54,578 nucleotides of DNA, taken from NCBI GenBank assembly GCA_964501965.1, contig CAZCVM010000002.1:1-54578 (forward strand). Reading direction: 5' to 3'. Both the position numbers and the translations under genes were made by a program. Source of the stretch: an uncultured Leptospiraceae bacterium. GTDB taxonomy: Bacteria > Spirochaetota > DYNZ01. The notes under the pieces are model-generated. The model was not told where the DNA came from. It made no database searches and saw only the letters and a program-made list of their open reading frames with translations. Every line of letters begins with the position of its first letter. Positions within the stretch are counted from its first letter, which is position 1. Positions 25,670 through 47,307 of the stretch are shown here, piece after piece.

Positions 25670-27628
<1,959 letters not shown>

Positions 27629-27886
27629 TCATGATCGACGAATTAATGTCTCTGGTTTTATTTTTGATTTTTCATAAAAACCATCTATGTATAAAACTAT
27701 TGTTTGACTATCCTTAAATAAAATCTCATCATCTTCATCAAAAATATCAGGAAAAACTCCTTCATTTTCATCTATATTGATTAATGACTTAATGTTAAAT
27801 ATTCCGATGATGTCATTTTTCGATACAATTTTATTGTATCCGATATGAATAAATTGTTTTAATAATTTTCTATGTTGTTTCATCAT
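27629..27886 (-). CDS. DUF370 / RemB-like small protein
   Basis: 85-aa ORF. FIHIGYNKIVSKNDIIGIFNIKSL resembles the N-terminus of RemA/RemB-family proteins. The position between recF and gyrB matches that of yaaB/remB in Bacillus, as I recall it. Confidence 0.55.
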   Translation of the reverse strand: MMKQHRKLLKQFIHIGYNKIVSKNDIIGIFNIKSLINIDENEGVFPDIFDEDDEILFKDSQTIVLYIDGFYEKSKIKPETLIRRS

Positions 27887-27904
27887 CTTGCTATTCTTTG
27901 CAGA

Positions 27905-29592: not shown

Positions 29593-29633
29593 GCATTTTA
29601 TAAAAAAAATAATTCAAAAATTATCTAATTGCC

Positions 29634-30743
29634 TTAATTGATTTTCAATGGCATTATTACTGAAATATAATTATCATTGTCAATGGCTTTTACTATTGCT
29701 GGCATTTCAGAATCAGAAAATTTAAATTCTATGTTTTCTGTTTCAATCTCTTTTATAGCATCCAATAAATAATTGCTATTAAATCCCATCTCATTTGCTT
29801 CCAAAGCTTTTTCTATTGTTAAATCTTCTTGAGCTGAACCAATATCCGGTGTCTGAGCTTCAATACGCAAATTGTTTTTATTGAATGACAATTTGACTTG
29901 ATGGGCAGCATCGCTGGCCATTAAAGATACTCTTTTGAGTGCTCCGATAAATTGGCTTCTTTCAATTGATACTGAATGAATAGTTTTATTTGGTATTACT
30001 TTTTTGTAATCCGGAAATTTGCCTTGAATCAACCGACAGGATATTTCTATATTGTTTAGTTTAAAATATATTTGATTTTGTGCAATATTGAATAATATTT
30101 CATTATCTGAAATCAATAATTTGTGAAGTTCGCTGATAATCTTACTAGGTATAATAACTCCTTCTTCCAGGTTAACTTTGTATATATTTGAATTCTGGAT
30201 ATAAGCCAAGCGTTTTCCATCGGTAGCAACAAATACAAGATTTTCTTCGTTTGCTTCAAAAAAAACGCCATTAAAAACAAATCTTGAATCATCATTATTT
30301 GCGGCAGCAAAAAATGTTTTTTGCATCATTGATTTGAATAATGGCTGCGGCAAAGAAAATAATTCTATTTGAGGCATTTGCATACGATTTGGATATTCAT
30401 TACTTTCTGAACCAACAATAGTAAAATTAGTTTTATTGTCAGGTGTTGCAATTTTTACTGAATAATTTTCATTAAGCTTCACTGTGATAGGTCCAGGGTT
30501 TAATGAACGAATGATGTTAGCGAATTTTTTCGCTGGCAACATTACAGCTCCTGGTGCAATTATTTCACTCTCTGCGTAACTTTTTATGTTAATATCAGAA
30601 TCAGAAGTTGTTAAAAATATTTTGTTGCTTTTTGCTTCTAACAATACATTGGCCAAAACAGTATCGCTGTTTTTAGGATTAATAATTCCTTCTACAGATA
30701 ATAATGATTTTTGCAAAATATCTTTATCTATTTTGAATTCCAT
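29634..30743 (-). CDS. dnaN: DNA polymerase III beta sliding clamp
   Basis: 369-aa ORF with the three-domain clamp pattern (VLANVLLEA, FVATDGKRLA, IQGKFPDYKKVIP, MPLKI at the C-terminus). It sits immediately downstream of dnaA/oriC. Confidence 0.9.
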   Translation of the reverse strand: MEFKIDKDILQKSLLSVEGIINPKNSDTVLANVLLEAKSNKIFLTTSDSDINIKSYAESEIIAPGAVMLPAKKFANIIRSLNPGPITVKLNENYSVKIATPDNKTNFTIVGSESNEYPNRMQMPQIELFSLPQPLFKSMMQKTFFAAANNDDSRFVFNGVFFEANEENLVFVATDGKRLAYIQNSNIYKVNLEEGVIIPSKIISELHKLLISDNEILFNIAQNQIYFKLNNIEISCRLIQGKFPDYKKVIPNKTIHSVSIERSQFIGALKRVSLMASDAAHQVKLSFNKNNLRIEAQTPDIGSAQEDLTIEKALEANEMGFNSNYLLDAIKEIETENIEFKFSDSEMPAIVKAIDNDNYISVIMPLKIN

Positions 30744-31182
30744 GGAATAACCTCAATTGAAAAAATTTCTTTAGCACTGAAGAAATACTAAATTCTAAAA
30801 GTACACAAAAGATTTCAAGCAAAATGCATTTTATCCACAATATTTCTTTTATTCTATTAATATAATTAATGAAATAAAATAAATATATATAGTAGTTGTC
30901 ATAGTAATTGAGTGGATAAGTGGAAAGTTCATTTTGTTTGATCAATAGTATAATGAAAATATAGAAATAAATAATGATGGAGTGTTAATAACTTTGGGAT
31001 TAATTGTGGGTGTGGTGTTAATACTGAATCCAAAATGTGAATAAGAAAAAATAAGAGATTTTATCCAGATGAATCCATAATTTATTCACAGTTTATTCAC
31101 ATTTTATGTTATAAGATTTGAGCTAAATATGGAGTTTTTTTATTAATTGGTTTTAGTTTTAAATTGAAAAATTAAAAATGAT
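30744..31182. other. Chromosomal replication origin (oriC): DnaA-box cluster plus AT-rich unwinding tracts in the dnaA-dnaN spacer
   Basis: DnaA boxes read directly: TTATCCACA at 30831-30839 (9/9). Five 8/9 boxes follow: agtggataa at 30911-30919 (minus strand TTATCCACT), tgtgaataa at 31035-31043 (minus strand TTATTCACA), ttatccaga at 31059-31067, and ttattcaca at 31082-31090 and 31093-31101. Nearly pure A/T runs lie at 30841-30900 and 31130-31180. Confidence 0.8.
30831..30839 (+). promoter_or_regulatory. Perfect consensus DnaA box TTATCCACA
   Basis: Exact 9-mer match, located inside the oriC spacer. Confidence 0.8.
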
Positions 31183-32571
31183 TTATAGTGAGGATTTGAT
31201 GGATTCTAGTATAGAATGGAAATCTTTATCATTTGTTAATTTTTTATCAATTTCTTTGCGAGCATTAATGATTGTTGAATGATCTCTTCCTCCTAAGTGA
31301 TATCCAATTTCTTTGGTAGTTAAGGAAGTCATTTCAGATATTAAATAAATAGATATAAATCGTGGAATAATCAATTTGTTAATGCGACTTTTTGAGGTTA
31401 TTTCTTTGGCAGAAATGCTATAATGCTTGGCTACTTTTTCAATAATTTCTGAGGCAGAATACTGTTTTTTAATTTCATTTGTTTGGATATATTCTCTTAA
31501 TATGCTATCAATATTGCTGAGGCTGGGGGTGAGGCCATATTGATTTTGGTGCAGTTTGATAGTCAAGATAGCACCTTCTAAGGAACGAATGTTTCCTTTA
31601 ATATTTTTTGCAATATAATACATAATTTCATCAGGAATAGAAATATTCTGATTTTTCGCTTTTTGTTTTATAATTTCTTTTCTGGTTTCTAAATCAGGAG
31701 GTGATATTTTTGTAATCAATCCCCATTGAAAACGATTGCTGATCCTATCAGTCAAATACAATAGCTGATTGGGAGGGCGATCACTCGATATAACGATTTG
31801 ACGCCCGGATTCATATAAAGCATTGAAGGTATGAAAAAATTCTGTTTGGGTTTTTTCTTTGCCTTGAATAAATTGGATATCATCGATTAATAGGATATCC
31901 ACATATCGATATTTGAGTTTGAAATGAGTCGTTTGATTTTTTAATATTGCATCGACAATTTCATTAATAAAAGTTTCTGAATGAACATACAAAACTTTTA
32001 GGTATTCCTTTTCTTTTTGCAATTTTTGAGCAATAGCTTGTAATAAATGTGTTTTTCCAAGTCCTACACCACCCCAAATAAAAAGAGGATTGAATTCTAA
32101 ACCGGGATTTTGAGCTACAGATAAAGCGGCAGCATGCGCATAGTCATTGTGGCTACCAACAACAAAATTGGGGAATGTAAAATTTGGATTTGTTTGGGTT
32201 GAAGGAAATGTTTGGGTTGGTTGATTAAGAGAATAATCCTTTTTTGTTTTTTGCATTACCAAAGGCTTTGAAGAAGGGATATCCGCAGACAATGTTTTGT
32301 TCTTGTCGTAGCTGTTGCTATAAGGAAAACCATCGTAGGAAACTAAATCTATTTTGATCTCTTTGCCAATGATTTCATATATTGCATGAGTAAGTTTTGG
32401 GAAAAAGTGATTTTCCACATGAGTTTTTTTGCGGCTATCATCAAATTCTATTAATATTCTTTCTTTTGTAGAAGAAATTATATTGCTGCCACCAAACCAA
32501 ATATCCACATCTTGTGGATTTATCGAAATTTTTAGATTATTTATAATGTTATTCCATAAATTATCTGACAT
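31183..32571 (-). CDS. dnaA: Chromosomal replication initiator DnaA
   Basis: 462-aa ORF with FTFPNFVVGSHN, the Walker A GGVGLGKTHLLQAI, LLIDDIQF, the sensor regions and the C-terminal DNA-binding block (IAMYL-like ISIYLISEMTSLTTKEIGYHLGGRDHSTIINA). Confidence 0.95.
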   Translation of the reverse strand: MSDNLWNNIINNLKISINPQDVDIWFGGSNIISSTKERILIEFDDSRKKTHVENHFFPKLTHAIYEIIGKEIKIDLVSYDGFPYSNSYDKNKTLSADIPSSKPLVMQKTKKDYSLNQPTQTFPSTQTNPNFTFPNFVVGSHNDYAHAAALSVAQNPGLEFNPLFIWGGVGLGKTHLLQAIAQKLQKEKEYLKVLYVHSETFINEIVDAILKNQTTHFKLKYRYVDILLIDDIQFIQGKEKTQTEFFHTFNALYESGRQIVISSDRPPNQLLYLTDRISNRFQWGLITKISPPDLETRKEIIKQKAKNQNISIPDEIMYYIAKNIKGNIRSLEGAILTIKLHQNQYGLTPSLSNIDSILREYIQTNEIKKQYSASEIIEKVAKHYSISAKEITSKSRINKLIIPRFISIYLISEMTSLTTKEIGYHLGGRDHSTIINARKEIDKKLTNDKDFHSILESIKSSL

Positions 32572-32763: not shown

Positions 32764-33375
32764 TTATCGAATTTGTGGGGGTTGATTAAAAACGGGAAGA
32801 TTTTTTAAATCGTTTAAAGCTAATACAAAATTGTCAGGAATTTTTATTTTCATTTCGTTGAAAGATGAAAAATAATAGGAACGGGCCAATTGAAATGTGC
32901 GGATGGATAACATAAAATGATTAATTCGTTTGTAAGATAGAGCACGGTTTTCTTCTTGCAGAGCCAGTCTGAAATATCTCAATGCCTTTTGGTTTTTAGA
33001 TAATTTGTTGTAATATTTTTTTGCCAAATCTTTTCGGATTTTCTGAGTATGTTCATAATAAACATTTACTAATCCTTGAAGAATGATTTTTTGATTCCTA
33101 TTAATGCTGCGTAGCAATATGTAACTTTTTCTTTTGTTTTGATTTTTTTCATGTTTTTGAGCTAAATTAATATCACTTTGCGTCGCATTAATGATTTTTT
33201 GCATTTTATGTCTTTTAACTCCATTCAATACATATTGAAATTTATCTTGAATATACTGCTGGGTGGTTATCGCTTTTTGTAGTTTTGTTGACCATTGGTT
33301 AGCGAATAATGATTGAATGGACATAAAAAAAACCAATATAAAAAAAATATATTTGATATTATTTTGTTTTTTCAT
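32764..33375 (-). CDS. Hypothetical secreted, basic, all-helical protein
   Basis: Start taken at the Met at 33375 (MKKQNNIKYIFFILVFFMSIQSLFA, a signal peptide). The protein is K/Q/N/R-rich with helical periodicity. The track ORF begins at 33429. Confidence 0.55.
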   Translation of the reverse strand: MKKQNNIKYIFFILVFFMSIQSLFANQWSTKLQKAITTQQYIQDKFQYVLNGVKRHKMQKIINATQSDINLAQKHEKNQNKRKSYILLRSINRNQKIILQGLVNVYYEHTQKIRKDLAKKYYNKLSKNQKALRYFRLALQEENRALSYKRINHFMLSIRTFQLARSYYFSSFNEMKIKIPDNFVLALNDLKNLPVFNQPPQIR

Positions 33376-34171
33376 TTTTGATATCAATTCTTTCTTTTTT
33401 GGATAAATTTTCTTTGGACCCCTGAACAAGAAAAGATTCAGATGCCTTATCTTTTACTGTTTTTGAAGCAGTAGTTTTTTGATTGTTGTCCACATGGTGT
33501 AAAATAATATTGTATTCAGGCCGAAGTTCTTTGTCGCCGCCTTGTTGCAATTCTTTAATTTTTGCGCCAATTTCTTCATAGGTTAGATTTTCTATGGCAA
33601 GTTTTTTGTCTCTTGGAGTTCGTGCTTGAATAATGGCCAAAATCGCATATCTCTTACTGCGTCTGCTGAGTTTGATTGCTTCAATGTATCTTTTTATTTT
33701 ATAAGAATAAAGCCGTTTGGAAGAATGATGCGCAATGACCTGCTGGCTTTTTGATTCTGTTAGATCACGGTATCCTAATGATAAATAAAGTCTAGCCTTG
33801 CTGTCTTTTGAACGAATAATGGTCGGAGCTATACGATCCAGGAGTTTTTTGGCATTACTTAAATAAATATCAATGGTTCGCGCGTATAAATCTACTTGCG
33901 TTTCCTGGGATTTTCGAATTTCAGTGTATGTTCTTTTGTAGTTGCTTTGCAAATAAGCGACCTGAGCCCAAAAATCATGCATGGCAGCTTTGTTGAATAA
34001 TTCAATTTCTTTTTTAGTACCAAAATTGGTTATGGCAATATTGATGTAATTAATAAAGTATTTGTTTTCTTGTAAAAAGCGGTCGGATGAAATTTGATCC
34101 GCAAAGCTCATTAATGCGTATATGGAGAAAAAATGGAGATATATCATTAATATAATTATTTTATATTTCAT
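33359..34171 (-). CDS. Hypothetical secreted helical protein
   Basis: 270-aa ORF with a signal peptide (MKYKIIILMIYLHFFSIYALMSFA). Its composition and R/K-Y-rich helices are similar to those of the downstream neighbour. No family recognised. Confidence 0.55.
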   Translation of the reverse strand: MKYKIIILMIYLHFFSIYALMSFADQISSDRFLQENKYFINYINIAITNFGTKKEIELFNKAAMHDFWAQVAYLQSNYKRTYTEIRKSQETQVDLYARTIDIYLSNAKKLLDRIAPTIIRSKDSKARLYLSLGYRDLTESKSQQVIAHHSSKRLYSYKIKRYIEAIKLSRRSKRYAILAIIQARTPRDKKLAIENLTYEEIGAKIKELQQGGDKELRPEYNIILHHVDNNQKTTASKTVKDKASESFLVQGSKENLSKKERIDIKNEKTK

Positions 34172-34512: not shown

Positions 34513-35340
34513 TTATTGTTTTATCGTAAATGTGGATTGTGTCGCCAGTTTTCGATCTTTATTTTCACCCAAAAAGACTTTTATTTTGTATTCGCCCGGA
34601 TCTTTGAAAAAATCAGGTCTAAGCATATAGGAGAAAGACTTTGATTGTGGGTCTATATTGTTTTCTATTTGTTTTCTAAACAATGTTTCATTATTGTTTT
34701 GTATTTTAAAAATTTCTAATGAAATGGTTTGAGTGTTAAATGGTTGATTTTGCGAAATTTTGTAAAAAATTTCACTTTGTGGAGCAAAATTGGTTATATT
34801 GTCTGGAGTTCCGGCAGAAAAAGATGAATTGCTCATAATCATAGATGTTGTTAAACCGCCTGTTTTACCCCATGGAGACCAATAGTATAAAAAAAGCGCA
34901 ACTACGCCGACTAAAATAAGTAAAGATACAATACGTTTCATATTTCCCTCTTTATTGTTTGATTTATCTAATTCTCTATTTGATTTTTCAGTGGTTTTAT
35001 CAGTAAAGCTATTTTTATTTTCAGCTTTAGCTGATGGTGAAAATTTTTCCCAACTCGCATTTTCAGATGTATTCCATGAAGCTGAAGCAGCTCCTGTCAA
35101 TCTAGTTTCTTTTTTTTTCTGTTTTGTTAGTTCTTCTTTTTTTTCTGTTTTTGGGTCTTCGGTTTGTTCGCTAGGTTTTTCATTTTCCATGCTTATTGTC
35201 CTTTCTTCCGATGAAATTGGTTTATTTTTTTGATCTTGCATGTCTTCTACAAGTTCAGATAATATATTTTGTCTTTTTTCCAGACCTTGCTTTATTGATT
35301 CATCAATAGCCTTATTAAATTTATCCTTTGATGACGGCAT
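34513..35340 (-). CDS. Hypothetical bitopic membrane protein: charged K/E-rich N-terminus, one TM, C-terminal domain of about 115 aa
   Basis: 275-aa ORF with the TM IVSLLILVGVVALFLYYW. Its start overlaps the stop of the ParA-like gene by 20 nt, so co-transcription is inferred. Confidence 0.6.
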   Translation of the reverse strand: MPSSKDKFNKAIDESIKQGLEKRQNILSELVEDMQDQKNKPISSEERTISMENEKPSEQTEDPKTEKKEELTKQKKKETRLTGAASASWNTSENASWEKFSPSAKAENKNSFTDKTTEKSNRELDKSNNKEGNMKRIVSLLILVGVVALFLYYWSPWGKTGGLTTSMIMSNSSFSAGTPDNITNFAPQSEIFYKISQNQPFNTQTISLEIFKIQNNNETLFRKQIENNIDPQSKSFSYMLRPDFFKDPGEYKIKVFLGENKDRKLATQSTFTIKQ

Positions 35341-36103
35341 TTAATAACTCCTGTACTAGTTGCTTGTATTCTGTTGCTGGTTTACTTGTTGTTTTGTATA
35401 AATAGAGAGTCTTTTTTAATAAATGCGCCTCTTCAACAGCTACGGATTGAGAAATTTTAGTTTCAAAAACCGGCAAATATTGCTTTATGGTAGGTAATAC
35501 AGCCTGAGCTATTGTTGTTCTTGGATTGTAAAATGTTACCAGAGCACCCAGGATATGCAATTCTTTATTGTATCTTTTTTTTACACTTCCAATAGCATCT
35601 AATATGCTTTGAATGCCGTCAATAGAAAATTTTGATATTTGGATGGGTACTATGATGCCATGACTGGCAACAAGAGCGTTGATCGTTAACATTGATAACG
35701 ACGGCGGGCAATCAATAATGGCAATATCGAAATCAATATTGACTAGACTGTCTGATAATTTAAAAAAACCGTTGATGTTTCCTGCCAGTAAACTTTCTGT
35801 TTCAGCCAATTGAATGCTAGAAGGAATAAAATAAAGGTTTACGTCAAAGGAGGACTGATATGCCAATTCATTTGCTTTGGCTTGATTCGCAAAGATTTGG
35901 TAAACTGTGTTTTTATTGTTTGCATCTTTTTGTAAAATGGATGTTGCGTTTCCTTGGGGATCTATATCAATAAAAAGTACTTTTTGCCCCTCTAAAGCAA
36001 GGCCATGTGCTAAATTGATTGCAGTGGTGGTTTTGGCTACACCTCCTTTTTGATTAATGATGCTAAGAATGTATGGTTTGTGCAATGTATTTGTTTTTTC
36101 CAT
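35321..36103 (-). CDS. ParA/Soj-family P-loop ATPase, orphan (no adjacent parB)
   Basis: Has the deviant Walker A ILSIINQKGGVAKTTTAINLA, FIDIDPQGNATS and IAIIDCPPSL. The start was chosen at the Met at 36103 (MEKTNTLHKPYIL). The 65 extra N-terminal residues in the track ORF (to 36298) look non-coding and overlap the divergent gene. Confidence 0.85.
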   Translation of the reverse strand: MEKTNTLHKPYILSIINQKGGVAKTTTAINLAHGLALEGQKVLFIDIDPQGNATSILQKDANNKNTVYQIFANQAKANELAYQSSFDVNLYFIPSSIQLAETESLLAGNINGFFKLSDSLVNIDFDIAIIDCPPSLSMLTINALVASHGIIVPIQISKFSIDGIQSILDAIGSVKKRYNKELHILGALVTFYNPRTTIAQAVLPTIKQYLPVFETKISQSVAVEEAHLLKKTLYLYKTTSKPATEYKQLVQELLNAVIKG

Positions 36104-36225
36104 ATTATTTGCTACAATATTTACTTGATTTATTTTTTTTGTAATAATGAAAGTTGCAAGACAAAAAGCCAAGTACATTTTTTTTTGTAAGTAAGTTATT
36201 TTGCAAGTAGGGAATTTTTTAAATA

Positions 36226-38379
36226 ATGGTAGCATTTCAAATCTTTCGGCGAAAAAAACACAGACAAACGTACCCTTTTGCGTCCTCCCGGGGGTCAATA
36301 TTACTAGTTACGCTATCTGCTGTTGTATTATTGCTGTTTTTTGCTATTGCAATTTACAATATTTATAAAAATTATCATTATTTGCGTATCAGAGATCATC
36401 GGTTAACTCAATTGCAGTGGCAATCTCGGTCTTTGCTAAGTCTATTGGCTCATCAAGTGACTTCTTCTCCGGATTTTTTCTATAAATTGATAGATAGAAA
36501 GAAAATAAATTTGAAACAATTGTTTATAAATTCTGATGAAAATAATAATGATGTGAAAAAACAAAGTAGTCTTTACTCTCAAAAAGCTCAGCAAATCTTG
36601 AACCAAAAACATGGTGTTGTATTTTTAGAAAAAACCCAGGATGCAAACATTTTTGAATTGAAGGTTGAACTATCGCAATACAATTTAAAGGTAGAGTCAA
36701 GTTTAATATTAAAAAAATTTAGTTATAGTGATTATCTATTTTATTTCAATAAAAATTTACAGCTTATAGCCGTTGAAGAGCCTTTGAGGTTTTATGGACC
36801 GATTTTTGTTTCTGGCAATTTAGAGCTGGGGGCTTATATGGGAAATATTTATTTTTATAAATCAAATAATGTTATCACGCCCTTACTGTATAGTGAAGGA
36901 AAGATTTCAGAATTTCGTGGATTGAAGAATCCGCAAGGGATTATATTTGGTATTGGCACAATAGATTTGGATAAAGACAATCCGATTCGGTCTATTTCCA
37001 AAGAAACCAGTTGGCAGGCTTTAAATCAGAGCGATGGTTCGACATGGTTTATGGATCAGAGTAATGGCGCATCTCAAATTGCGTTTTTGACTTATGGTGA
37101 CATGGTTCAACATGTTCAAAAAAATAGAAAAAAAATTCAAAAGTATTCTTTAGGAAAACGAGGAGGATTTTCGGAAATTAGCATTGTCAATCCAAAATTG
37201 TTACGAAAACAGTTTTTAGGCTTTGGTACTGGAAGCAAGTCATTTTTCAATCATAATGCTGGTTATATACCAAATCGAGTTTATGTTGCGCGTATCGTGG
37301 ATAATCAGAAGGCTTCTAGTCAACATATTCATCCTATAGAAGCATTGGACAATTCAAAAAAGCCTGATCAAAATGTTTCGTATGGATCTATTCAGTTTCT
37401 GAAAGATATTGTGCCGTTGGATTTGCCGGATCAAGCATTTGCGGATTTTGGCGTTATTCGATTGGGCGGACGCGGTTGGAGCAGGATAGCCAGAGATTTG
37501 CCTATCAGAGATTTGTATCTCAATGGAAAAACAAAAGAAAACCAATTGAAAGGTAATGATTTTTTTTATGACGCAACAAAAAAGGAATTGCGATTTTTTA
37601 ATGAATACCACAATAGTTATTATAAAATATTAGATGATGCTAAGCCGGATGGAAAAAAACGGGATTTTCCCATGATGAAATATTTTCCTGCTTATGGTTA
37701 TGTGAATGGAAAAAAGAAAAATATGACAGCCATAAAAGGAAGAATAATTTTTGATGTGGCGCCCCCTGCGGGATCAACTATAGGGATACTCACTCAAAAA
37801 CCTGATATATATATCCGCAAAGAAATGCCCGAAACTGGTATGGGTGTATTTGTTGATAAACCAATATATGCTTTGCATGTGGATTTGGGACAGCTCGCGG
37901 ATCCGGATTCAATAATTGTTTATCATTTTTTTTGTCCAATTTATGTAACCGGAAATGCTGCCACAAAAATTGTTATTGTTAGTGAACATGATGTTTATTT
38001 GGGAGATATAAATAATTCTAATAATGCATCTGAAAATAAAGCAGTAACAATTGTATCTAAGGGCGTAGTATGGGCGTTGAACAAAAATGGAAAAACTTTG
38101 TCGATAAAAAATGTATGGCTGCATTCTGCTGGGGATCAGTTGTTTTCTGTATATGCGCAAAACCCGGAAGCCAAAAAGAAAAATCTATTTTTAGGTTCTG
38201 CAACGTTTAGTGGATTGTTGACCAATGCTTTTGTTGAACAATCCCTTGTTTCCAGTTATTTGTATACTATTGAATATTTTGATGGATGGAATTTTGTATA
38301 CGATTCAAGTTTTATTGAGCCAGATGGCCAGCCTGATGGTGTACCGGTGACATATACTATAGAAGGTGTGAATTGGTAA
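36226..38379 (+). CDS. Large hypothetical protein with a PilX-N-like (pseudopilin-like) N-terminal anchor
   Basis: 717-aa ORF. The N-terminus RGSILLVTLSAVVLLLFFAIAIYNIY resembles the PilX_N / minor-pilin type hydrophobic segment. The rest is beta-rich and N/G/Y-rich, with no motif I recognise. Confidence 0.65.
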   Translation: MVAFQIFRRKKHRQTYPFASSRGSILLVTLSAVVLLLFFAIAIYNIYKNYHYLRIRDHRLTQLQWQSRSLLSLLAHQVTSSPDFFYKLIDRKKINLKQLFINSDENNNDVKKQSSLYSQKAQQILNQKHGVVFLEKTQDANIFELKVELSQYNLKVESSLILKKFSYSDYLFYFNKNLQLIAVEEPLRFYGPIFVSGNLELGAYMGNIYFYKSNNVITPLLYSEGKISEFRGLKNPQGIIFGIGTIDLDKDNPIRSISKETSWQALNQSDGSTWFMDQSNGASQIAFLTYGDMVQHVQKNRKKIQKYSLGKRGGFSEISIVNPKLLRKQFLGFGTGSKSFFNHNAGYIPNRVYVARIVDNQKASSQHIHPIEALDNSKKPDQNVSYGSIQFLKDIVPLDLPDQAFADFGVIRLGGRGWSRIARDLPIRDLYLNGKTKENQLKGNDFFYDATKKELRFFNEYHNSYYKILDDAKPDGKKRDFPMMKYFPAYGYVNGKKKNMTAIKGRIIFDVAPPAGSTIGILTQKPDIYIRKEMPETGMGVFVDKPIYALHVDLGQLADPDSIIVYHFFCPIYVTGNAATKIVIVSEHDVYLGDINNSNNASENKAVTIVSKGVVWALNKNGKTLSIKNVWLHSAGDQLFSVYAQNPEAKKKNLFLGSATFSGLLTNAFVEQSLVSSYLYTIEYFDGWNFVYDSSFIEPDGQPDGVPVTYTIEGVNW

Positions 38380-38390
38380 TGAAAGGGTAA

Positions 38391-40499
38391 ATGATGTCTA
38401 AAAAAAATTTTTATCATATTGCTGAAAAGAAAAAATTGTTAATTATTGACGCGCATGATACAATTTTCAAACGCGATTTGAGCCGGTCTACCCAAAATAT
38501 ATTTTTAAATCCTGATCAAAAAGACAAAGTAGAATGGCGATTGCGTTCTGGTTTTACAAATTTTTTGGATTTTTTTAAGGGAATACGAAAAGCAAAAATT
38601 GTTATTAGTTCTGATGGCGATCAGGATCGATTGCATGATTTATGTACTCGATTTGGCATAATTAAACAGATTGATGCTATTTATGGCTACAATCATATTC
38701 ATAAAGAAACTTTTTTAAAGCAATTGGATTTAATTTTGAATGATTTGAATGTTTTACCGGAAGAAGCGGTTTTTATTGGAGATGGAAAAATTGATGAGTA
38801 TTCGGCAAAAAAATATGGTGTTCAATATATAAAAGTTCCCAATACTCTAGAAGATTTAACTTTTTCATTCAACGTTTTTTTTCCCCAGGAAGAATATGGC
38901 ACAGGGCCAAATTTGGAACTGCAAAATTTAGTGAATTTTAAAAAGGTTTATCACAACTGTACATCTCCTTGTTTGGTAGAATTTTCTATCAAACAAAATG
39001 AAGGCAAACTGGCGCATCTTGGAGCTTTAGCTGTAGATAGCGGAAACTTCCATAAGCATTTGGGGCATGGACGATACATTGTGAAAGAGCCGTCTAGTGA
39101 GAATCGTATAGATTGGCAAAACCCTGCATTTGAACCATTTGATGCTCAGCATTTTCATTTGCTTCAATTGAGACTTCAGGCCTTTTTACAGGATAGAGAA
39201 ATTTTTGTGCAGGATTGCTATGTAGGGTCTCAATCTCAACATCAAAAACCTTTGCGCATAATTACCCAAACCGCATGGCATAGTCTTTTCGCTCGAAATA
39301 TGTTTGTTCAAGGAAGCATAACACAGTTGCAATCGTTTTTTCCCGAATTTACTGTGATTCATGTTCCATTTTTCAAGGCAATACCGGATTTGGATGGTAC
39401 CAAGACCGAAGAGTTTGTCATTATTAATCTTTTGAAAAAAATTGCGTTGATTGGCGGTACAAGCTATGCAGGAGAGATTCGACGTGCTATTTATATGCTC
39501 ATGGGATATTTTTATTTGGAAGAAGATGTTTTGCCGGTTAAATGCTCGTCCAATCAAGGAAAGAATAATGGTGATACAGCGTTTTATTATGGTGAAGCAA
39601 GTACTACAAAAAGCAGCATAACTTTGAACAAAGATCGGTTTTTTTTGGGAGATGCTTTTCATGGTTGGAGCAATACTGAGGTGTTCAATTTAGAATGGGG
39701 AAGCTATTTGCCAGTATCCAATTTATCTATGGAAAAGAGTGAAATAATTTTTGAATCATGTCATAAATTTGCCACAATATTGGAAAATACGCATATTACA
39801 GATGAGCGCAGAATAAATTTTAATGAGCCATATAGTGATAGCAATGCCAGAGCTAGTTTTCCAATAACCCATATTGATGACGCTGTACGTTCTGGCATAG
39901 GACAAAGGCCTCAAAATGTTTTTATTATAATAAAAGATGGACTGGGAATTTTGCCACCATTGGTTCAATTGAGCCGGGAACAAGCAATCGTTTTTTTGCT
40001 TTTAGGGTATAATTCTGAGATGATGCATGATTATTCTGAGTCCATTTTTTCTGAAAATGCTCGTTTTTTTCCATTTTTTAAGGATCATCCCTTTGTGTTG
40101 AAGCCTTCTGTTTACGCGCTGTACTTGTGGGAAAAATTGGAATCATCGCAAAGCAAATGTTGGTTGCTAAATAAATCACATTTTGGCAGTCTAAAAGCTG
40201 GAACCGGTTGGTTTACAAAGTCTTATAGTTTACGTTTAGTAAACTTTGTTTTTGAAAATAGTCAAATCGATCTGACGGACAATTTAAACTGGGGATTTAG
40301 ATATTTGAATCATTCTCCTTTTCCAAAAGAATTGGAAGACTATCATTTCAATATTACTAATGTCTGGCCGGACTATGATGAATACTTAGTTCGCGAGAAA
40401 GCTTTGATTTTGAAAATAAACGAAATAATGGAGCCATATATAAAGGATTTGGATCCTCCGATTGTAAATTCTATACCAAAACTTATAAAGAAAATGTAG
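38391..40499 (+). CDS. Fusion protein: N-terminal HAD-like hydrolase domain plus C-terminal ATP-type PEP carboxykinase-like domain with a degenerate active site
   Basis: 702-aa ORF. HAD blocks: LLIIDAHDTIF (motif I with His at the Asp+2 position), VISSDG and FIGDGKIDEYSA. PEPCK_ATP-like blocks: LGALAVDSGNF, ITQTAWHSLFARNMFV, LIGGTSYAGEIRRAIYMLMGY, FYYGEASTTKSSIT, LGDAFHGW, NARASFPITHID and GILPPLVQLS. Confidence 0.75.
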   Translation: MMSKKNFYHIAEKKKLLIIDAHDTIFKRDLSRSTQNIFLNPDQKDKVEWRLRSGFTNFLDFFKGIRKAKIVISSDGDQDRLHDLCTRFGIIKQIDAIYGYNHIHKETFLKQLDLILNDLNVLPEEAVFIGDGKIDEYSAKKYGVQYIKVPNTLEDLTFSFNVFFPQEEYGTGPNLELQNLVNFKKVYHNCTSPCLVEFSIKQNEGKLAHLGALAVDSGNFHKHLGHGRYIVKEPSSENRIDWQNPAFEPFDAQHFHLLQLRLQAFLQDREIFVQDCYVGSQSQHQKPLRIITQTAWHSLFARNMFVQGSITQLQSFFPEFTVIHVPFFKAIPDLDGTKTEEFVIINLLKKIALIGGTSYAGEIRRAIYMLMGYFYLEEDVLPVKCSSNQGKNNGDTAFYYGEASTTKSSITLNKDRFFLGDAFHGWSNTEVFNLEWGSYLPVSNLSMEKSEIIFESCHKFATILENTHITDERRINFNEPYSDSNARASFPITHIDDAVRSGIGQRPQNVFIIIKDGLGILPPLVQLSREQAIVFLLLGYNSEMMHDYSESIFSENARFFPFFKDHPFVLKPSVYALYLWEKLESSQSKCWLLNKSHFGSLKAGTGWFTKSYSLRLVNFVFENSQIDLTDNLNWGFRYLNHSPFPKELEDYHFNITNVWPDYDEYLVREKALILKINEIMEPYIKDLDPPIVNSIPKLIKKM

Positions 40500-40504
40500 C
40501 TTTC

Positions 40505-41989
40505 ATGCAAAGGATATCTTTTGTGCAAAATAAAATCACAGATGATTGGCTAAAAAAAATACAAAGCAAAGAAAAACAAGCACTCAAGCAGGTGAAAAAG
40601 GTATTCGATTTAGATCAATCTGATTGGCAGGTTGTTGACTTTTGGCAAAATTGCAAAAACGATAGGCAACAGAGTTGTTTTGTCCATGATATCTGGATTT
40701 ATCGATTGGGTAATTCTGTGTATGTAGCAAAAAATGAGGAGGTCTTTGAGGAGTTAGATCAATGCGCAAGCCGTGATTATCAGAATTTTGCAAGTTTTGT
40801 GCAGTCATTATTTCAATATGAAGAATCCTGCGTGCCGGTGAATACATTTTCATTCTTAGATGAACCAGAACAAAAGCCTGTTACTTTTTATCGCTCCTAT
40901 TTTTTGGGTAAATGGGACATAGTCATGAGTATTCAAGATTGTACAAAAATTTCGAATGTGACAGATGCAAAGATTCGAGAGCTTTTTGTTTTATACTGCA
41001 AAGAAAAAGAAAGTATCATTCAATATCAGAATAAACAATTGGTAAATATTTACAATAGGCATGGTCGTGATGTTATCAATGAAGTGTTGGCTTCTGTATT
41101 CGGATTTTTGTTGAATGTTCGTGTCCCTCAGAATTATTTTGGCTACAAAAAATTTCAATATACTCGGGCGTATTCAGAAAAGCCAAGTAATGGTTTGGAA
41201 CGATTTGTTGTTTCTAAAGCTTTGTGCGAAAGAATGCCCTGTCTTGACTTAAAGCAGGCTATGCAAAATGTTTTGGACCAGCAACATAAAGATAAAATTA
41301 TCGAAGAAGATAACCAATTTAGTGTTGGTACACAGAAAATGGCAAAAGAAGATTTTGTGGATTTTAAAAATTTGCTGCAATTGAATTGGCATAACGCAAA
41401 TCCATTTCAAATATGTTTCAAAAAGTCAGGTATGAATTATGCAAATACGACTTTGTTAAGAAATTTTATTGAAAAGAACTTTGTCCATTACAAAGATATG
41501 ATTCAATCCCATGTTTTGGATCAAATATTTGGTGCTTCTAAGGATAGGAAAATTGAGGAGTTTGTTTTGCCTGAAGGAAATACTGGCCGCATTTTTACAG
41601 TGGATTATGGAGAGATTCTTTTTCCAGAATTGAGTATGCCTCAAGATGAACCCCATTATCAATTTAGAAAGAAATCTGAATGGCACAGAATCAAACTTTT
41701 TTTGCAAAATGTAACGATGGAAAATAAAATATACAAACAGGCTGTAGCAGAAACAATTCTTAATCTTGCTTTTATTTCAAAAGATTTTGTTTTGCAATTT
41801 GTGCATAGTATTCCGGATGTATTTTTTAAGTACTATTGGGATGAGAATCGCTTTTGTTATTTTTCACAAACTTTAGCGGATTATTTATTATCTTTAATTG
41901 CGCAGGTTAGGTATTTTTTTATGATTGACAAGGATTGCGATTTTGTTCAAGCAAAAGAATACATTTGGGCTTATTATTGTTTGGATTGA
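40505..41989 (+). CDS. Hypothetical protein, 494 aa (third gene of the operon)
   Basis: The ORF begins 5 nt after the preceding stop. Composition is cytoplasmic. The only motif-like stretch is [31 protein letters not shown]. Confidence 0.6.
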
Positions 41990-44136
41990 TTTTTTATAAG
42001 TCTTTGCAATATTTGGATGGCTGATTCTACGATAGGAGTGCCTGGCCCAAAAATAAAATCAACGCCTTTTTCAAATAAATACGGGTAATCCTGGCTGGGA
42101 ATGACTCCTCCGGCAACGACTATTGCTTCATATAGACCCATTTGGTGCATTTGATCGATTGTCTCAGGAATCAGTGTTTTGTGCCCACCAGCTAAACTGG
42201 ATATGCCCAGGATATGAACATCGCTTTCAATTGCCTGGCGTGCGACTTCGGTGGGCGTTTGAAAAAGTGGGGCTAAATCCACATCAAAACCCATATCCGC
42301 AAAGCTTGAAGCAACAACTTTTGCTCCTCGGTCGTGACCGTCTTGACCTAATTTAGCTATGAGTATGCGAGGCCGTCTTCCTTCTGTTTCTGAAAACTTA
42401 TTTGCTAAATCCATTGCTTGCGCAAAGCTTTTGTTGTCTGTCATTGCTTTTTTATAAATACCTGTATTTATTTTCGATTGGTTTTCAAAGCGAGTGAAAA
42501 TAGTTTCACATGCGCTAGAAATTTCCCCTATTGTGGCTCTATGTTGGGCTGCAATTATGGCATATTCGAGTAGGTTGTTTGTTTTGTCTCGGCACGCCTG
42601 AGTCAAGTTGTTAAGTGCTTTTGCTACTTCTGGGGCATCACGCTCCTTTTTTATTTCAGTCAATTTTTCTATTTGTTTTTTTCGCACAAGGTAGTTGTCC
42701 ACTTCCAAAATTTCAATGTCATAATTGGGTTCATTGTGGGACACCATATATTCATTGACTCCGACAATGATATCTTGTTTCGAGTCAATACGCGCCTGCC
42801 GCTTGGCTGATGCTTCTTCAATTTTTCCTTGAGGTATTCCCAGTTCAATGGCTTTGGCCATGCCGCCATGCTTTTCGATTTCAGATATATGATGCCAAGC
42901 TTTTTCCATCAATTTATTGCTAAGGTTTTCAATATAATAAGAACCTGCTACCGGATCTATACAGTCTAAAAGATCGGTTTCGTTTTGTAAAAACAATTGC
43001 GTATTGCGCGCAATTCGCGCAGAAAAGTCAGTTGGTAAGGCAATGGCTTCATCCAGGGCGTTGGTGTGCAAAGATTGAGTGTGTCCCAAGACCGCAGCCA
43101 GTGCTTCGAGGTTGGTACGAGTGATATTGTTGAATGGGTCTTGTTCTGTAAGACTATAACCAGATGTCTGACAATGCGTTCTAAGTGCCATGGATTTGTT
43201 GTTTTGCGGATTAAATTGTTTAACAATTTTTGCCCACAAAGCTCTCCCTGCACGCAGTTTGGCTATTTCGGTAAATATATTCATGCCAATGCCCCAAAAA
43301 AAAGACAGTCTGGGCGCAAATTGATCAATATTTAATCCAACAGAAACACCTTTGCGCAAATATTCCAATCCATCTGCTAATGTATAAGCTAGTTCTAAAT
43401 CTGCGGTAGCACCAGCTTCTTGAATATGGTATCCGCTAATACTAATAGAATTGAAACGCGGCATTTTTTTCGCTGTAAAGGAAAAAATATCTCCAATAAT
43501 CCTCATGGATGGCTCCGGTGGATATATATATGTGTTCCGAACCATAAATTCTTTGAGTATATCGTTTTGAATGGTACCTGAGAGTTTGTTGGTATCTACA
43601 TTTTGTTCCATTGCCGCGACGATATAAAATGCCAGTATAGGCAATACGGCTCCGTTCATAGTCATAGAAACAGATATTTTCTCCAAGGGGATGCCCTGGA
43701 ACAGGTCCTTCATATCTTCAACTGTGTCGATCGCAACACCTGCTTTGCCCACATCACCCAGAACCCGTTCATGATCTGAGTCATAGCCTCGATGAGTCGC
43801 TAAATCAAAAGCAACAGATAATCCTTTTTGTCCGGCCTGTAAATTTTTGTGATAAAAGGCATTGGATTCTTCTGCTGTAGAAAAACCAGCATATTGGCGG
43901 ATTGTCCAAGGCCGATTGAGGTACATAGAAATATATGGGCCGCGAAAAAATGGAGGATATCCGGACAAACCAGAATGAAGATCAAAATCGTCTTTTTCCG
44001 GTGATGAATATGTGTTTTTGATTACAAACTCTTCTGGACTTATCCAGTTGTTTGTTTTTAGATTTGAGATTGTCGCATTGTTTTGCTTGATTTTTTTATA
44101 ATAATCAAATGGAATTTTATTAAATAGATTTCTCAT
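41974..44136 (-). CDS. mutB: Methylmalonyl-CoA mutase large (catalytic, B12-binding) subunit
   Basis: 720-aa ORF with [29 protein letters not shown] and RIARNTQ. The C-terminal cobalamin domain carries [13 protein letters not shown] (DxHxxG). Confidence 0.9.
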
Positions 44137-44159
44137 TATATATATCCTTGAATATTTGC

Positions 44160-46229
44160 TTATACTATTCCAATTATTTTTTGTATTTTTTTGATGACCT
44201 CAACAATGTTTGACTCATTATTTAGATAAATAATGAATTCATTGGGATTTTCTTTATCCGTCAACGCAGCCTGTTTATTGTCATTACTCTCTTGAGCTTC
44301 CGGTTTCTTGGATACTATCAACCAATATGTTGTGTTTGATTTTTGCCTTTTAGCGAATTGTAGATATATGTCCTCATTGTTGCCAATTATCGCGATTATC
44401 GGGTTATTTGTTGCCTGGATTTTTTTTTCTAAATTTGTATCATCCTCGTTGTGATTTATAATCTCATAAGGAAGCATGGCCATGTTTAGAAAACCAGTCA
44501 ATAAATTTTTTTGTTGAGTATTTGTGCTGCCCGGATCTAACAAAATAATTGGTATATTACAAGAATTTTGTGATTCCAGAAAGATTTCTGTTTTTAGACG
44601 TAAATATTCTAAATATTGGGCCAATCTAAATGGAGTTTGATTGCCCAAAAAACCCTCTAAGGATTCGCTGAAAGATTCTGTTAAGAAATTTTCTTTGACT
44701 GCATTTTCTAATGATTTTAATACAAATTCTTTTGAAAAATTGTTTAAATTTTTTTGAATTATTTGTGTTATGGTTTCTTGTTTTTGAGAATAAGCATTGG
44801 CTCCGATTAGCAGAAGCTGTGATGTGTGAAAAGAATCTATAAGCTTTTTTCTGGATTCAAATATTTTTTGTGGAATATATAGATTTTGCACAGCTTCAAG
44901 GTATCCTCCTTGTTTTTCGATTTCCTGAAACAAGGTCCAGCTTTGTTTGCAATTTTTTTCTGTGAGATCTTCGATAGCGTATGTTCCCCGAAAAGGATCC
45001 AAAACCTTTTGTGCAAAGCCTTCATGGCTTAGCAATAAAAATTGATTTAATGCTATTCTATGTCCAAATGGATCCAATGGCGCGTACAATTGATTGTATG
45101 GCGCAGTTGAAACAGCGTCTGCAGTGCCCCAAATTGCAATGGCACTTTCTAATGAATTGCGTAAAATATTGACGTAAGGATCAAAAAGTGTTTTGTTCCA
45201 TGAAGCATTTTTTGTGTAAACAATTGCTTTATCCAAATCACTGGTTACGAGATTTGGGTATTGTGAAATAATATTTATCCATAGAAGGCGTAACGCGCGA
45301 ATTTTGGCAATTTCATGCAACATGAAACTGCTGACTGATATGGAAAAATGCCATTCATTAAAATAGTGATTTATAGAATTTTTGCTGTCTGATATCGCTT
45401 GCAAATAATCATTGGCTTTGTTGAGTAAAAAGGCCAATTCCTGAATAGAATTTCCTCCATTGTTGTGGAATTCATGTCCATTGATTTGTAAGCCATTTTG
45501 AATTTGATCGTCTGTGTTGTTTGTTAATTGCCTGAGCCATTTATTCATTTCTGTGTTTTTTTTGTTATTTAGAATAAAGTCTTGCTGTGCCAGGGGATCA
45601 AAAAAAAGTACAATTTTTATTTGTTTGTTGGGTAAATTGACAAAGCTTGGATCAAGTTGCAACCATTGATTTTTGTCTACTAATTTGTAATGCACATTTT
45701 CGATTTGTATTTTTTTAATGCTGTTATTTTTTAAAGATAGTATGTGTTGGATGATTTCTTTGGTTCGTTTTTTTATGCTGCTGTCCATATTAAAGTTCAT
45801 GTCCAAAGAAATGTGCGAAATATTGCGCTGTTCTAATAATCTTATTAACGGAAAATACTCTTGAATTGGTCGGTCCAATATTGGCAAACAATGACATTGA
45901 TAAATATCTCTAGTTTTTTTTTGCCAACCTGTGTTTATTGTGTCCCGTTGTTCCTTTATTCTGCTTTGTGGTTTTGTCGTATACAAAGGAGAATAAATTG
46001 GATTTATGGGAATGGGATTGAGGTAGTCTTTTGGATGGATCAGGCTAAACTCAGCCAATATGGAAGAAATATCTATTGAAGTGTCTGTTTGTGTCTTTTC
46101 TAATAAATATTCTTTTGCGCATTCTATGCAAAAATTTGTGATCCAATCTTGCGGATTGACAGTATTAAATTCTTCAAAGCTTAGTTTTTGTTTGATGTTG
46201 TCGTCTGACACAGTATTTAGATGATTCAT
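44160..46229 (-). CDS. mutA: Methylmalonyl-CoA mutase small subunit (MutA-like, no B12 His motif)
   Basis: 689-aa ORF, paralogous to the barrel region of the neighbour: [14 protein letters not shown]...[13 protein letters not shown]...IEKQGGY versus [14 protein letters not shown]...[13 protein letters not shown]...IEKHGGM. The C-terminal Rossmann-like part lacks DxHxxG. Confidence 0.75.
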
Positions 46230-46248: not shown

Positions 46249-47307
46249 TTACATTTCTATAGAACGTATCATGTCTACCAAGATTGCCACATTTTTTTCA
46301 GGCGTCTGGGGCAGAACCCCATGTCCCAAATTGAATATATGTCCAGTCTGATCTAGCGATTTAGCTAATTGGGCAATTGTTTTTTTTAACTGGTCAGGCG
46401 ATTTGAACAATTCATACGGAGAAAGATTTCCTTGCAATGGGTAGTTGAGTTTTTTTCTAACATCCATCAATGGAGTATTTTCATCTACACTGATAATATC
46501 CGCATTGGAATTTCGCAGTTTATCCCATGGATGCTGAAAATTTTTTATAAACAATATCGTAAAATAGTCTTTTCCTTTGATAATACTAGGCTTTTGTTTT
46601 TGTACGATTTCTTCCATTGTATTCATTGTTATTTTTTGGTATGGAAGTACAAATTGATCAAAAATTTCGGCTGGGAGGTTGCCAGCCCATGAATCAAACA
46701 TTTGCACTGCGTCTGCGCCGGCCAGGATTTGAGTTGCTAGGTATTGCCCCATCTGGTTTGCCAGTGTTGTCAGCATTGTTTTCAATTTATCTGGTTCTTG
46801 CGCAATGGCGATACGAATAGCGTGAAATGATTTTTTGTGGCTTTGATCCAAAATATATGTGGCCAAAGTGAAAGGTGCTCCACAAAATCCCAATACTGCT
46901 TTTTGGGGCAATTGTTGCCTGATCAGGCGTATTGTTTGGGGTACATAAGATAGCTTTTCCATTGTCTCATACGTCTTTAAATTAAAAACAGAATCAGGAA
47001 CACTAAGTGCTGGCCCTTTATCATCAGAAAATTTCAAATTTATGCCCATGGGTTCTAATGGGGTAAGGATATCTGAAAATAATATCGCAGCGTCCATATC
47101 AAATTTATGAATAGGTTGCAATGTTACTTGTAGAGCTAACTCAGGGGTCTTGCATAGTGTCAAAAAATCATATTTTTCTTTCAATTGCCGATAATCCTTC
47201 ATATAACGACCTGCTTGGCGCATCAGCCATATAGGCAACCGATATGTTTTTTGATTTTTACATGCAGCCAAAAACAATTCTCTGGAGGAAATATTGGATA
47301 TTATCAT
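46249..47307 (-). CDS. hemE: Uroporphyrinogen decarboxylase
   Basis: 352-aa ORF with the signature PIWLMRQAGRYM, FSDILTPL, FDSWAG and NLGHGV. Confidence 0.9.
   Translation of the reverse strand: MIISNISSRELFLAACKNQKTYRLPIWLMRQAGRYMKDYRQLKEKYDFLTLCKTPELALQVTLQPIHKFDMDAAILFSDILTPLEPMGINLKFSDDKGPALSVPDSVFNLKTYETMEKLSYVPQTIRLIRQQLPQKAVLGFCGAPFTLATYILDQSHKKSFHAIRIAIAQEPDKLKTMLTTLANQMGQYLATQILAGADAVQMFDSWAGNLPAEIFDQFVLPYQKITMNTMEEIVQKQKPSIIKGKDYFTILFIKNFQHPWDKLRNSNADIISVDENTPLMDVRKKLNYPLQGNLSPYELFKSPDQLKKTIAQLAKSLDQTGHIFNLGHGVLPQTPEKNVAILVDMIRSIEM

Follow-up and report, generated by a model that had tools for sequence, protein, structure and literature searches.

Genes and domains at the locus

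The DNA analyzed here is a 54,578-nt stretch (the window) of contig CAZCVM010000002.1, from an uncultured Leptospiraceae bacterium. On its plus strand, an open reading frame (ORF) of 702 codons with an unbroken frame encodes a HAD domain joined to a domain resembling ATP-dependent phosphoenolpyruvate carboxykinase (PEPCK; PckA). This fusion gene is followed by a second gene, here called the partner, which belongs to an orphan family. Features are listed in Table 1, with coordinates given relative to the window unless a locus (Lnnn) is named.

The original prediction, made from the sequence by eye, was that a HAD domain and an ATP-PEPCK fold reside in one ORF. Both domains were recovered with Pfam: HAD_2 (PF13419) matched residues 67-149 (E = 5.8e-8; 33.5 bits versus a gathering cut-off of 23.8), and PEPCK_ATP (PF01293) matched residues 185-600 (E = 3e-108; 363 bits versus a 26.5-bit cut-off). 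NCBIfam PEPCK models also supported the prediction and gave alignments that span residues 174-697. The fusion nonetheless misses the curated PEPCK cut-offs, scoring 286.5 of 590 bits for TIGR00224, 380.7 of 636 for NF006820 and 334 of 806 for NF006822. The closest solved structure is that of T. thermophilus PEPCK, 1j3b (E = 1.7e-91, HMMER alignment). The C-terminal 520 residues descend from ATP-dependent PEPCK and appear to form a non-catalytic pseudoenzyme domain.

Table 1. Positions of the features discussed in the text
Feature	Coordinates	Strand	Basis or remarks
ORF of 717 aa with N-terminal hydrophobic segment	36226..38379	+	Ends 11 nt ahead of the fusion
Fusion gene, 702 aa: HAD plus putative PEPCK-derived pseudoenzyme domain	38391..40499	+	ORF; Pfam HAD_2 and PEPCK_ATP; ~47 fusion clusters
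HAD domain, residues 1-172, without helical cap	38391..38906	+	AlphaFold2 model, Foldseek, conservation
HAD motif I DAHDT, residues 20-24, His at Asp+2 and Asp at +3	38448..38462	+	Family alignment
PEPCK-like domain, residues 174-697: fold kept, catalytic set gone	38910..40481	+	PF01293, NF006820, 1j3b alignment
Former PEP/oxaloacetate loop, FHKHLGHGR for (F/Y)TGRSPKDK (R65 to H223)	39048..39074	+	Arg in 0/44 fusions versus 71/71 canonical PckAs
R364-R365 for K212-K213 (K213, Mn ligand)	39480..39485	+	K212 to R in 43/44 fusions
K384 for Mn-ligand H232	39540..39542	+	R in 34/44, K in 4/44, His in 0/44 fusions
Degenerate P-loop, GEASTTKSSIT for GLSGTGKTTLS	39591..39623	+	Family-wide; G248 and K254 alone persist
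GDAFHGW for GDDEHGW (D269 to A422, E270 to F423; D268, H271, W273 retained)	39648..39668	+	1j3b alignment, family alignment
Partner, 494 aa, orphan family	40505..41989	+	Start 5 nt past the fusion stop codon
Partner K76, invariant Lys in (F/Y)xxK strand (71-77 in model); candidate kinase beta-3 Lys	40730..40732	+	20/20
Partner D347-R-K349-I-E-E352, catalytic-loop-like D-x-K-x-x-[E/D]	41543..41560	+	D347 and R348 20/20; K349 18/20; +5 always acidic
Partner D367-Y-G369-E370, DFG-like, 20 residues past D347	41603..41614	+	D367 and G369 20/20; E370 19/20
Canonical pckA beside fusion	L007 3850..5472; L009 13724..15337; L013 13653..15275; L020 3343..4941		
P0016-subclade fusion	L020 5001..7103; L021 3856..5958		
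PPDK-to-PFOR array	L024 965..11941		
Standalone HAD and PlsC pairs	L017 6001..7424; L018 6001..7196; L019 1088..2283		

Replacement of the PEPCK catalytic set

PEPCK residues are numbered according to a 540-aa E. coli PckA sequence, which places all residues named in the literature correctly. In the E. coli PckA structures, K213, H232 and D269 are the Mn2+ ligands and T255 the Mg2+ ligand, with R65, R333 and Y207 contacting the substrate and K254, K288, R449 and T455 contacting ATP.

The HMMER alignment to 1j3b gives every correspondence that had been drawn by hand, and so the manual register was correct. The proposed losses of the Walker glycine (GLSGTGKTTLS to GEASTTKSSIT; G251 to S and G253 to T), the Mn-ligand Asp (D269 to A422) and the Mn-ligand His (MHCSAN to VKCSSN; H232 to K384) are all seen in it, as is the replacement of the substrate loop FTGRSPKDK by FHKHLGHGR. 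For the segment GGEMKKG, which reads AGEIRRA in the window protein, the exchange of KK for RR was borne out (K212R, K213R), but the reading AGE does not count as a change from GGE, since YAGEIKK is also found in the nearest canonical (Thermus-type) PckAs. Within the P-loop, T255 is replaced by S while K254 is unchanged. Beyond the changes predicted originally, K288 has been lost (to P441). R449 has given way to W or F; although the alignment near the C-terminus may be off by one residue either way, residues 606-609 contain neither Arg nor Lys.

The PEPCK-like domain should be unable to act as a PEPCK, because it has lost the binding residues for PEP/oxaloacetate, Mn2+, Mg-ATP and adenine. Where fusions of this kind are named, their source annotation is “phosphoenolpyruvate carboxykinase (ATP)”, and taken at face value this label would make the protein a working ATP-dependent PEPCK with an unusual active site. 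The strong PF01293 match and the retention of Y207, R333, K254 and D268 in the window protein agree with the label. We nevertheless regard it as very improbable that the label is right, since this protein has changes at all three Mn ligands, R65, two of three P-loop glycines, K288 and R449, all curated models score far under their cut-offs, and relatives retain a canonical PckA beside the fusion.

Distribution and conservation of the fusion family

Whether the same fusion exists in other genomes, a check proposed with the original prediction, was addressed by a search of 5.8 billion proteins. In addition to an identical protein (P0001, NCBI), this search returned ~47 clusters that share the HAD plus PEPCK_ATP architecture (650-760 aa, 38-58% identity), and after them canonical PckAs of ~530 aa at 36-42% identity. 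The carriers to date are all metagenome-assembled genomes (MAGs), and the labels on these read Leptospiraceae, Spirochaetales, Gammaproteobacteria, Pseudomonadota and Planctomycetes. The architecture is therefore already in public databases under a misleading PEPCK name, while the family itself is undescribed in the literature searched. Neither an account of the fusion architecture or the partner family nor a description of a PEPCK-derived pseudoenzyme was found in that literature, in which subscription journals were thinly covered.

A family alignment was built from 44 full-length fusions and 71 canonical PckAs. R65, Y207, K212, K213, H232, G248, S250, G251, G253, K254, T255, D268, D269, E270, H271, K288, E297, R333, R449 and R456 are invariant in 71/71 canonical sequences. 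Among the 44 fusions, G248 is retained in 42, but G251 in five and G253 in two; K288 is retained in two, R449 in one, R333 in 13 and Y207 in eight. The K213 position is occupied by K (26), R (7) or T (6), that of K254 by K (37) or R (6), and that of T255 mostly by N (25) or S (13). The loop that bears R65 in canonical enzymes is hypervariable in both sequence and length. A complete PEPCK catalytic set is present in none of the 44, and the substitutions are a property of the whole family, beyond the window protein alone.

The least degenerate fusions are P0016 and P0018, which have GxGKT and K288 intact and are ~50% identical to canonical PckAs. They nonetheless lack H232, K213, D269, R65 and R449. 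Judging from these residues, a P0016-type fusion may still bind nucleotide.

Neighbour-joining on the PEPCK domain places 44/44 fusions in one clade that includes no canonical PckA. Mean identity over this domain is 0.52 among fusions (minimum 0.32) versus 0.70 among the sampled canonical enzymes. Positions conserved at a level of at least 88% number ~63 of the first 175 (HAD) versus 93 of ~525 (PEPCK-like), and it is in the HAD domain that the fusion is most constrained. Of the positions conserved in fusions, 66, which make up the scaffold, are common to canonical PckA, and 27 are fusion-specific.

Values for dN/dS were calculated by the Nei-Gojobori method for pairs with unsaturated dS (L007-L011, L011-L013, L007-L013 and L010-L012). 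They range from 0.04 to 0.09 for the HAD domain, from 0.04 to 0.13 for the PEPCK-like core and from 0.08 to 0.16 for the C-terminal 100 residues. The PEPCK-like domain is maintained by strong purifying selection and is not decaying. Because its catalytic positions are replaced while both domains are under purifying selection, this part of the protein is best described as a maintained pseudoenzyme domain.

The absence of so many catalytic residues might also be expected of a decaying pseudogene, or of an artefact of assembly or gene calling in which a HAD gene has been run together with a broken pckA. This explanation is hardly credible: the reading frame runs for 702 codons without interruption, ~47 clusters come from independent assemblies in several phyla, omega is 0.04-0.13 and the fusions are monophyletic. 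We consider it refuted by recurrence, dN/dS and monophyly.

The HAD domain

The AlphaFold2 model of residues 1-172 (pLDDT 87.5) shows a Rossmannoid core that lacks a helical cap; between motifs I and II there are only a beta-hairpin flap and a loop. A Foldseek search with this model assigned the HAD fold with a probability of 1.0, with 2ybd as the top match (E = 1.2e-6, TM 0.66). Significant neighbours are small HADs, the capless protein phosphatases SCP1/2/3, CTDNEP1, MDP-1 and UBLCP1, TIM50, and the KDN9P and KDO8P phosphatases. At the sequence level, HAD_2 matched 18/18 fusion members checked, although the sequence fits only the C-terminal half of this model, and the NIF family gave a weak match (E = 0.013) in 1/18.

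The predicted His at the Asp+2 position of motif I (IIDAHDT) proved to be a fixed feature of the family. D20, A21, H22 and T24 are present in 44/44 fusions and D23 in 43/44. The other HAD motifs are invariant, namely motif II (S73-S74-D75-G76), motif III (K110) and motif IV (G130-D131...D135, which aligns to structure 4rn3), and the HAD-domain alignment contains 32 invariant columns in all. In HAD enzymes the Mg2+ ligand at Asp+2 is the backbone carbonyl, and the side chain usually touches the substrate phosphate (PMC10541634); His at this position therefore need not end metal binding. The acid/base chemistry must, to judge from this motif, differ from that of the usual HAD. The HAD domain is probably the catalytic part of the fusion and an active phosphatase.

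With the HAD domain as the only query, a profile search returned standalone HADs of 164-183 aa that are 24-33% identical to it. Motif I of these proteins reads D-C-F-E-T or D-F-Y-D-T (the latter in P0199, P0203 and P0204) and fits the pattern D-x-[F/Y]-[D/E]-T. Loss of Asp+2 together with an acidic +3 residue is therefore a trait of a wider small-HAD clade. In three loci (Table 1), the standalone HADs P0197 and P0202 (172-176 aa, D-C-F-E-T) have a PlsC-type acyltransferase gene (PF01553) directly downstream, which hints at a lipid-phosphate link for the small-HAD clade.

The partner gene

Homologues of the partner are 400-490 aa long. A partner homologue was present beside the fusion in every one of the first loci examined, and in 14 of 15 non-redundant loci overall the two genes are neighbours, with the partner on one side or the other and gaps of -8 to about +130 nt. 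At the P0045 and P0015 loci it overlaps the fusion start by 4 nt. The association also holds in the other direction: with only the partner as seed, a scan of genomes gave 10 loci, in Gammaproteobacteria, Lysobacterales, Chromatiales, Pseudomonadota and Leptospiraceae, and the fusion was beside the partner in 10/10. When flanking ORFs were clustered across 12 non-redundant loci, broad recurrence was found for the fusion and the partner only.

The partner had no match in Pfam, NCBIfam or PADLOC. Its family comprises 45 clusters at 90% identity. A HMMER search of 1.84 billion proteins with the partner profile returned 21 representatives at the 50% identity level, all with E of 3e-18 or less, and no distant relatives among these 1.84 billion representatives bridge the partner to a known family. 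Matches of the profile to PDB sequences were to apolipoprotein A-I only and were rejected as spurious. Sub-threshold Pfam matches to DUF4264 were seen in 16 of 23 partners (best E = 5e-5), with the window protein below threshold.

Conservation was assessed with 20 representatives, down to 24% identity. Invariant residues are H61, K76, E78, G187-R188-D189, N299-P300, S335...D339, G361, T365 and E375. Three segments resemble kinase motifs when matched by eye (Table 1), with an acidic residue at the position of the metal-binding Asn. The DFG-like segment reads D-[F/Y]-G-E across the family. Its distance of 20 residues from the catalytic-loop-like motif is in the range for protein-kinase-like proteins, in which catalytic loop and DFG are 18 residues apart (eukaryotic-type kinases, APH) or 23 (HipA). 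The AlphaFold2 model of the partner (pLDDT 83, pTM 0.81) combines an N-terminal sheet of five strands with a C-terminal half made up of helices. Seventeen of its top 19 Foldseek matches are protein-kinase-like (including NahK, APH(9), HipA, LxmK, PINK1, YihE, ATM, DNA-PK and mTOR), and none is significant (best E = 0.17, TM 0.12-0.24). Pfam searches of 23 and then 10 members gave a single HipA_2 match (E = 0.1). The term “kinase-like” is used here for a hypothesis that could fall either way.

Genomic neighbourhoods of relatives

Fusion genes of relatives are repeatedly found next to genes of the PEP-pyruvate-oxaloacetate node. In a gammaproteobacterial clade of 698-aa proteins (L007, L009 and L013), the order is partner, fusion, ~290 nt, and then a canonical E. 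coli-type pckA whose product carries GRSPKDK, GGEMKK, MHCSAN, GLSGTGKT, GDDEHGW and NTRVSYP. The adjacent canonical pckA of L005 is cut by the contig end. In the P0016 subclade (L020/L021), 59 nt separate the fusion from a gene for a canonical 532-aa PckA upstream of it, and L020 also has a gene resembling pyruvate-phosphate dikinase (PPDK) 3.3 kb downstream of the fusion. Thus pckA adjoins the fusion in two separate clades. In L024, genes for PPDK (878 aa), the partner (466 aa), the fusion (646 aa), an iron-sulphur protein and pyruvate:ferredoxin oxidoreductase (PFOR) follow one another on the same strand, either overlapping slightly or separated by short gaps.

A recent tandem duplication was considered as the source of the pckA adjacency and rejected. 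The neighbouring PckAs are 24-39% identical to the PEPCK domain of the fusion, and because unlinked canonical PckAs are closer to the fusion than these neighbours are, the adjacency is not the relic of a recent duplication. The check for a separate canonical pckA, proposed with the original prediction, therefore had a positive outcome in relatives, where one often adjoins the fusion; no canonical pckA or other second PEPCK is present within the 54.6-kb window.

The metabolic neighbours bear on an alternative in which the PEPCK-like domain has acquired a new catalytic function that needs no metal and acts on some small molecule, either phosphorylated or carboxylated, so that the kinase and the HAD would be consecutive steps of a small-molecule pathway and would not constitute a regulatory switch. 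This would account for the conservation of old active-site positions (R212 in 43/44 fusions, K/R254 in 43/44, D268 in 44/44, H271 in 42/44, W273 in 44/44 and R/K232 in 38/44), for the 27 fusion-specific conserved positions and for an omega as low as that of a working enzyme; pairs of a kinase and a HAD phosphatase are also frequent in biosynthetic clusters. However, the conserved residues form no recognizable catalytic arrangement, and the hypervariability of the loop in the R65 region is odd for a substrate-binding element. The domain also evolves faster than canonical PckA, as its lower mean identity indicates, and further pathway genes do not recur with the module. We consider a new enzyme of this kind unlikely.

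Context within the window

In the window, the module lies close to a replication-origin region that contains, on the minus strand, gyrB (25670..27595), recF (28423..29592), dnaN (29634..30743) and dnaA (31183..32571). The cumulative GC-skew minimum is at ~30 kb, and G+C is lowest (0.26-0.28) at 28-32 kb. Together, 25670..32571 and the skew minimum mark the chromosomal origin region. In a Spirochaetales MAG (locus L003, 2838..4787) the module is likewise a few kb from gyrB, and the proximity in both cases may be residual synteny near the spirochaete origin.

The 717-aa ORF upstream of the fusion had no Pfam, NCBIfam or PADLOC match and is probably co-transcribed with the module. It was considered as a component of the module and rejected, as a homologue is absent from other loci. 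Its start, as listed, overlaps a divergent ParA-like gene (35321..36298). Downstream on the minus strand are two genes for methylmalonyl-CoA mutase subunits (41974..46229), one of 720 aa with a B12-binding domain and one of 689 aa. They are convergent with the partner, with a 16-nt overlap at its 3' end, and a uroporphyrinogen decarboxylase gene follows them (46249..47307). A 270-aa ORF (33359..34171, minus strand) matches the Leptospira OmpL37 adhesin subfamily NF047447 (178.5 versus a 150-bit cut-off); this match, and the fact that the fusions nearest to that of the window are from Leptospiraceae MAGs, make a Leptospiraceae-like spirochaete the probable source. The 270-aa ORF overlaps ORF 32764..33429 by 71 nt, and one start codon has therefore probably been miscalled. 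Scans for promoters and terminators around the operon gave matches at chance level only, and Rfam gave no match in the whole window.

A toxin-antitoxin or defence cassette could also take the form of a self-contained two-gene unit with variable gene order. The partner would then be a HipA-like kinase toxin and the fusion the antidote that reverses its phosphorylation. Such a cassette would fit the patchy spread of the module (Leptospiraceae, Spirochaetales, several gammaproteobacterial orders and a Planctomycetes-labelled MAG), the presence of HipA among the weak structural matches and the one HipA_2 match. Nevertheless, PADLOC matched neither the fusion nor the partner, nor the 717-aa ORF, and a known defence system is therefore unsupported. 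An hhalign comparison of the partner with E. coli HipA, which is insensitive because the template is a single sequence, gave a probability of 0.1. A helix-turn-helix antitoxin is absent, no integrases or transposases were seen among the called genes of the inspected loci, and the base composition is like that of the surrounding window. The contexts are those of housekeeping and metabolism: the oriC region here and pckA, PPDK and PFOR elsewhere. We judge the cassette explanation to be improbable, and less probable than a new enzyme activity.

Proposed function

The interpretation that we favour is a kinase/phosphatase module tied to the PEP-pyruvate-oxaloacetate node, with the dead PEPCK serving as a binding or targeting module; we give it about an even chance of being right. 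The capless N-terminal HAD would be an active phosphatase that uses Asp20, Thr24, Ser73, Lys110, Asp131 and Asp135, with His22 at Asp+2. Capless HADs usually rely on accessory modules or subunits for specificity, and the dead PEPCK domain may be such a module, recruiting substrate to the open active site of the HAD or capping it. In fusions, conserved Arg or Lys residues stand in the old metal site (R at position 212, K/R at 213, R/K at 232 and K/R at 254), from which we infer that the pocket binds a phosphate-bearing or otherwise anionic ligand without metals. The translationally coupled partner would be the opposing kinase, forming a kinase/phosphatase pair that acts on a common target. As the module is repeatedly found beside pckA, PPDK and PFOR, the likeliest candidates for this target are the enzymes and metabolites of the PEP-pyruvate-oxaloacetate node.

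Several points weigh against this interpretation. No significant match of the partner to any kinase-like family profile was found in Pfam, NCBIfam or PDB, and neither the Foldseek matches nor the HipA comparison reached significance, which leaves the kinase assignment weak. His at Asp+2 might disable the phosphatase, and we know of no characterized HAD with His at this position. The putative anion pocket is derived from residue identities mapped onto known PckA structures. Genes of the PEP node are adjacent to the module in neither the window nor the Leptospiraceae and Spirochaetales loci. Finally, the P0016/P0018 subclade, in which the P-loop is intact, has no partner within the 5-7 kb examined, and the module is therefore not universal.

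A more specific form of the favoured interpretation is a new phospho-regulatory module for the PEP node that consists of a divergent kinase, a His-type capless HAD phosphatase and a PEPCK pseudoenzyme. The pseudoenzyme domain would read a phosphorylated ligand, or would mimic or dock onto PckA or PPDK. This version is offered tentatively and is, in our estimate, somewhat unlikely. If true, it would represent the first PEPCK-derived pseudoenzyme and a new post-translational control of bacterial gluconeogenic entry. To our knowledge, few dedicated bacterial regulators of the PEP-pyruvate-oxaloacetate node have been described. The pairing of the two genes, together with the pckA, PPDK and PFOR neighbours, makes phosphorylation control at the PEP node a testable hypothesis.

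Other consequences concern the family as a whole. It provides a family-level case in which the fold of a central metabolic enzyme appears to have been recruited as a non-catalytic domain, with P0016 and P0018 still carrying a P-loop. The HAD motif variant with an invariant His at Asp+2, which falls in a broader clade with the pattern D-x-[H/F/Y]-[D/E]-T, is unstudied. Note also that, because fusions are labelled PEPCK (ATP), metabolic reconstructions of MAGs can wrongly credit an organism with gluconeogenic PEPCK, or count two.

Comparison with known systems

The closest known relative of the PEPCK-like domain is PckA itself (EC 4.1.1.49; PF01293; 1j3b, and 1aq2 from E. coli), to which the fusion is homologous over ~520 residues. 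LIGGT, CS(S/A)N, GD..HGW, A(S)FP..H and G.LPP are among the 66 scaffold positions that they have in common. The fusion differs in lacking R65, K213, H232, D269, E270, K288, R449 and the P-loop glycines, in having an extra N-terminal HAD domain and in scoring under all curated cut-offs, and true PckA coexists with it in relatives.

The HAD domain resembles the capless (C0) HAD protein phosphatases SCP1/FCP1 (NIF), CTDNEP1-NEP1R1, MDP-1 and UBLCP1, which likewise have a Rossmannoid core and a beta-hairpin flap but no helical cap. Foldseek TM values are 0.5-0.6, and motif I of these enzymes also has an acidic +3 residue (DLDET versus DAHDT in the fusion). They have Asp rather than His at +2, and in the fusion the accessory module is a dead PEPCK. 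TIM50 and other pseudo-HADs, as well as pseudokinases, provide examples of an enzyme fold that remains under selection after catalytic loss, and TIM50 is itself a Foldseek neighbour. The roles are reversed here, as the HAD keeps its catalytic motifs and the PEPCK part is the pseudo-domain.

PNKP, from T4 and mammals, combines a HAD phosphatase with a P-loop kinase-type domain in one polypeptide; its kinase domain is active and unrelated to PEPCK, however, and its HAD motif is the canonical DxDGT. An analogous logic is found in AceK, the kinase/phosphatase of isocitrate dehydrogenase, and in PDRP/PSRP (DUF299), the regulatory proteins of PPDK and PEP synthase, in which kinase and phosphatase activities directed at one central-carbon enzyme are encoded beside that enzyme, although these are single bifunctional proteins and no homology to the module was detected. 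HPr kinase/phosphorylase (HprK/P), whose P-loop catalytic domain has a structural kinship with the nucleotide-binding domain of PEPCK, modifies a protein and controls carbon metabolism, which sets a precedent for the PEPCK fold in regulation. HprK/P has an intact Walker A motif and is catalytic, whereas the P-loop of the fusion is degenerate.

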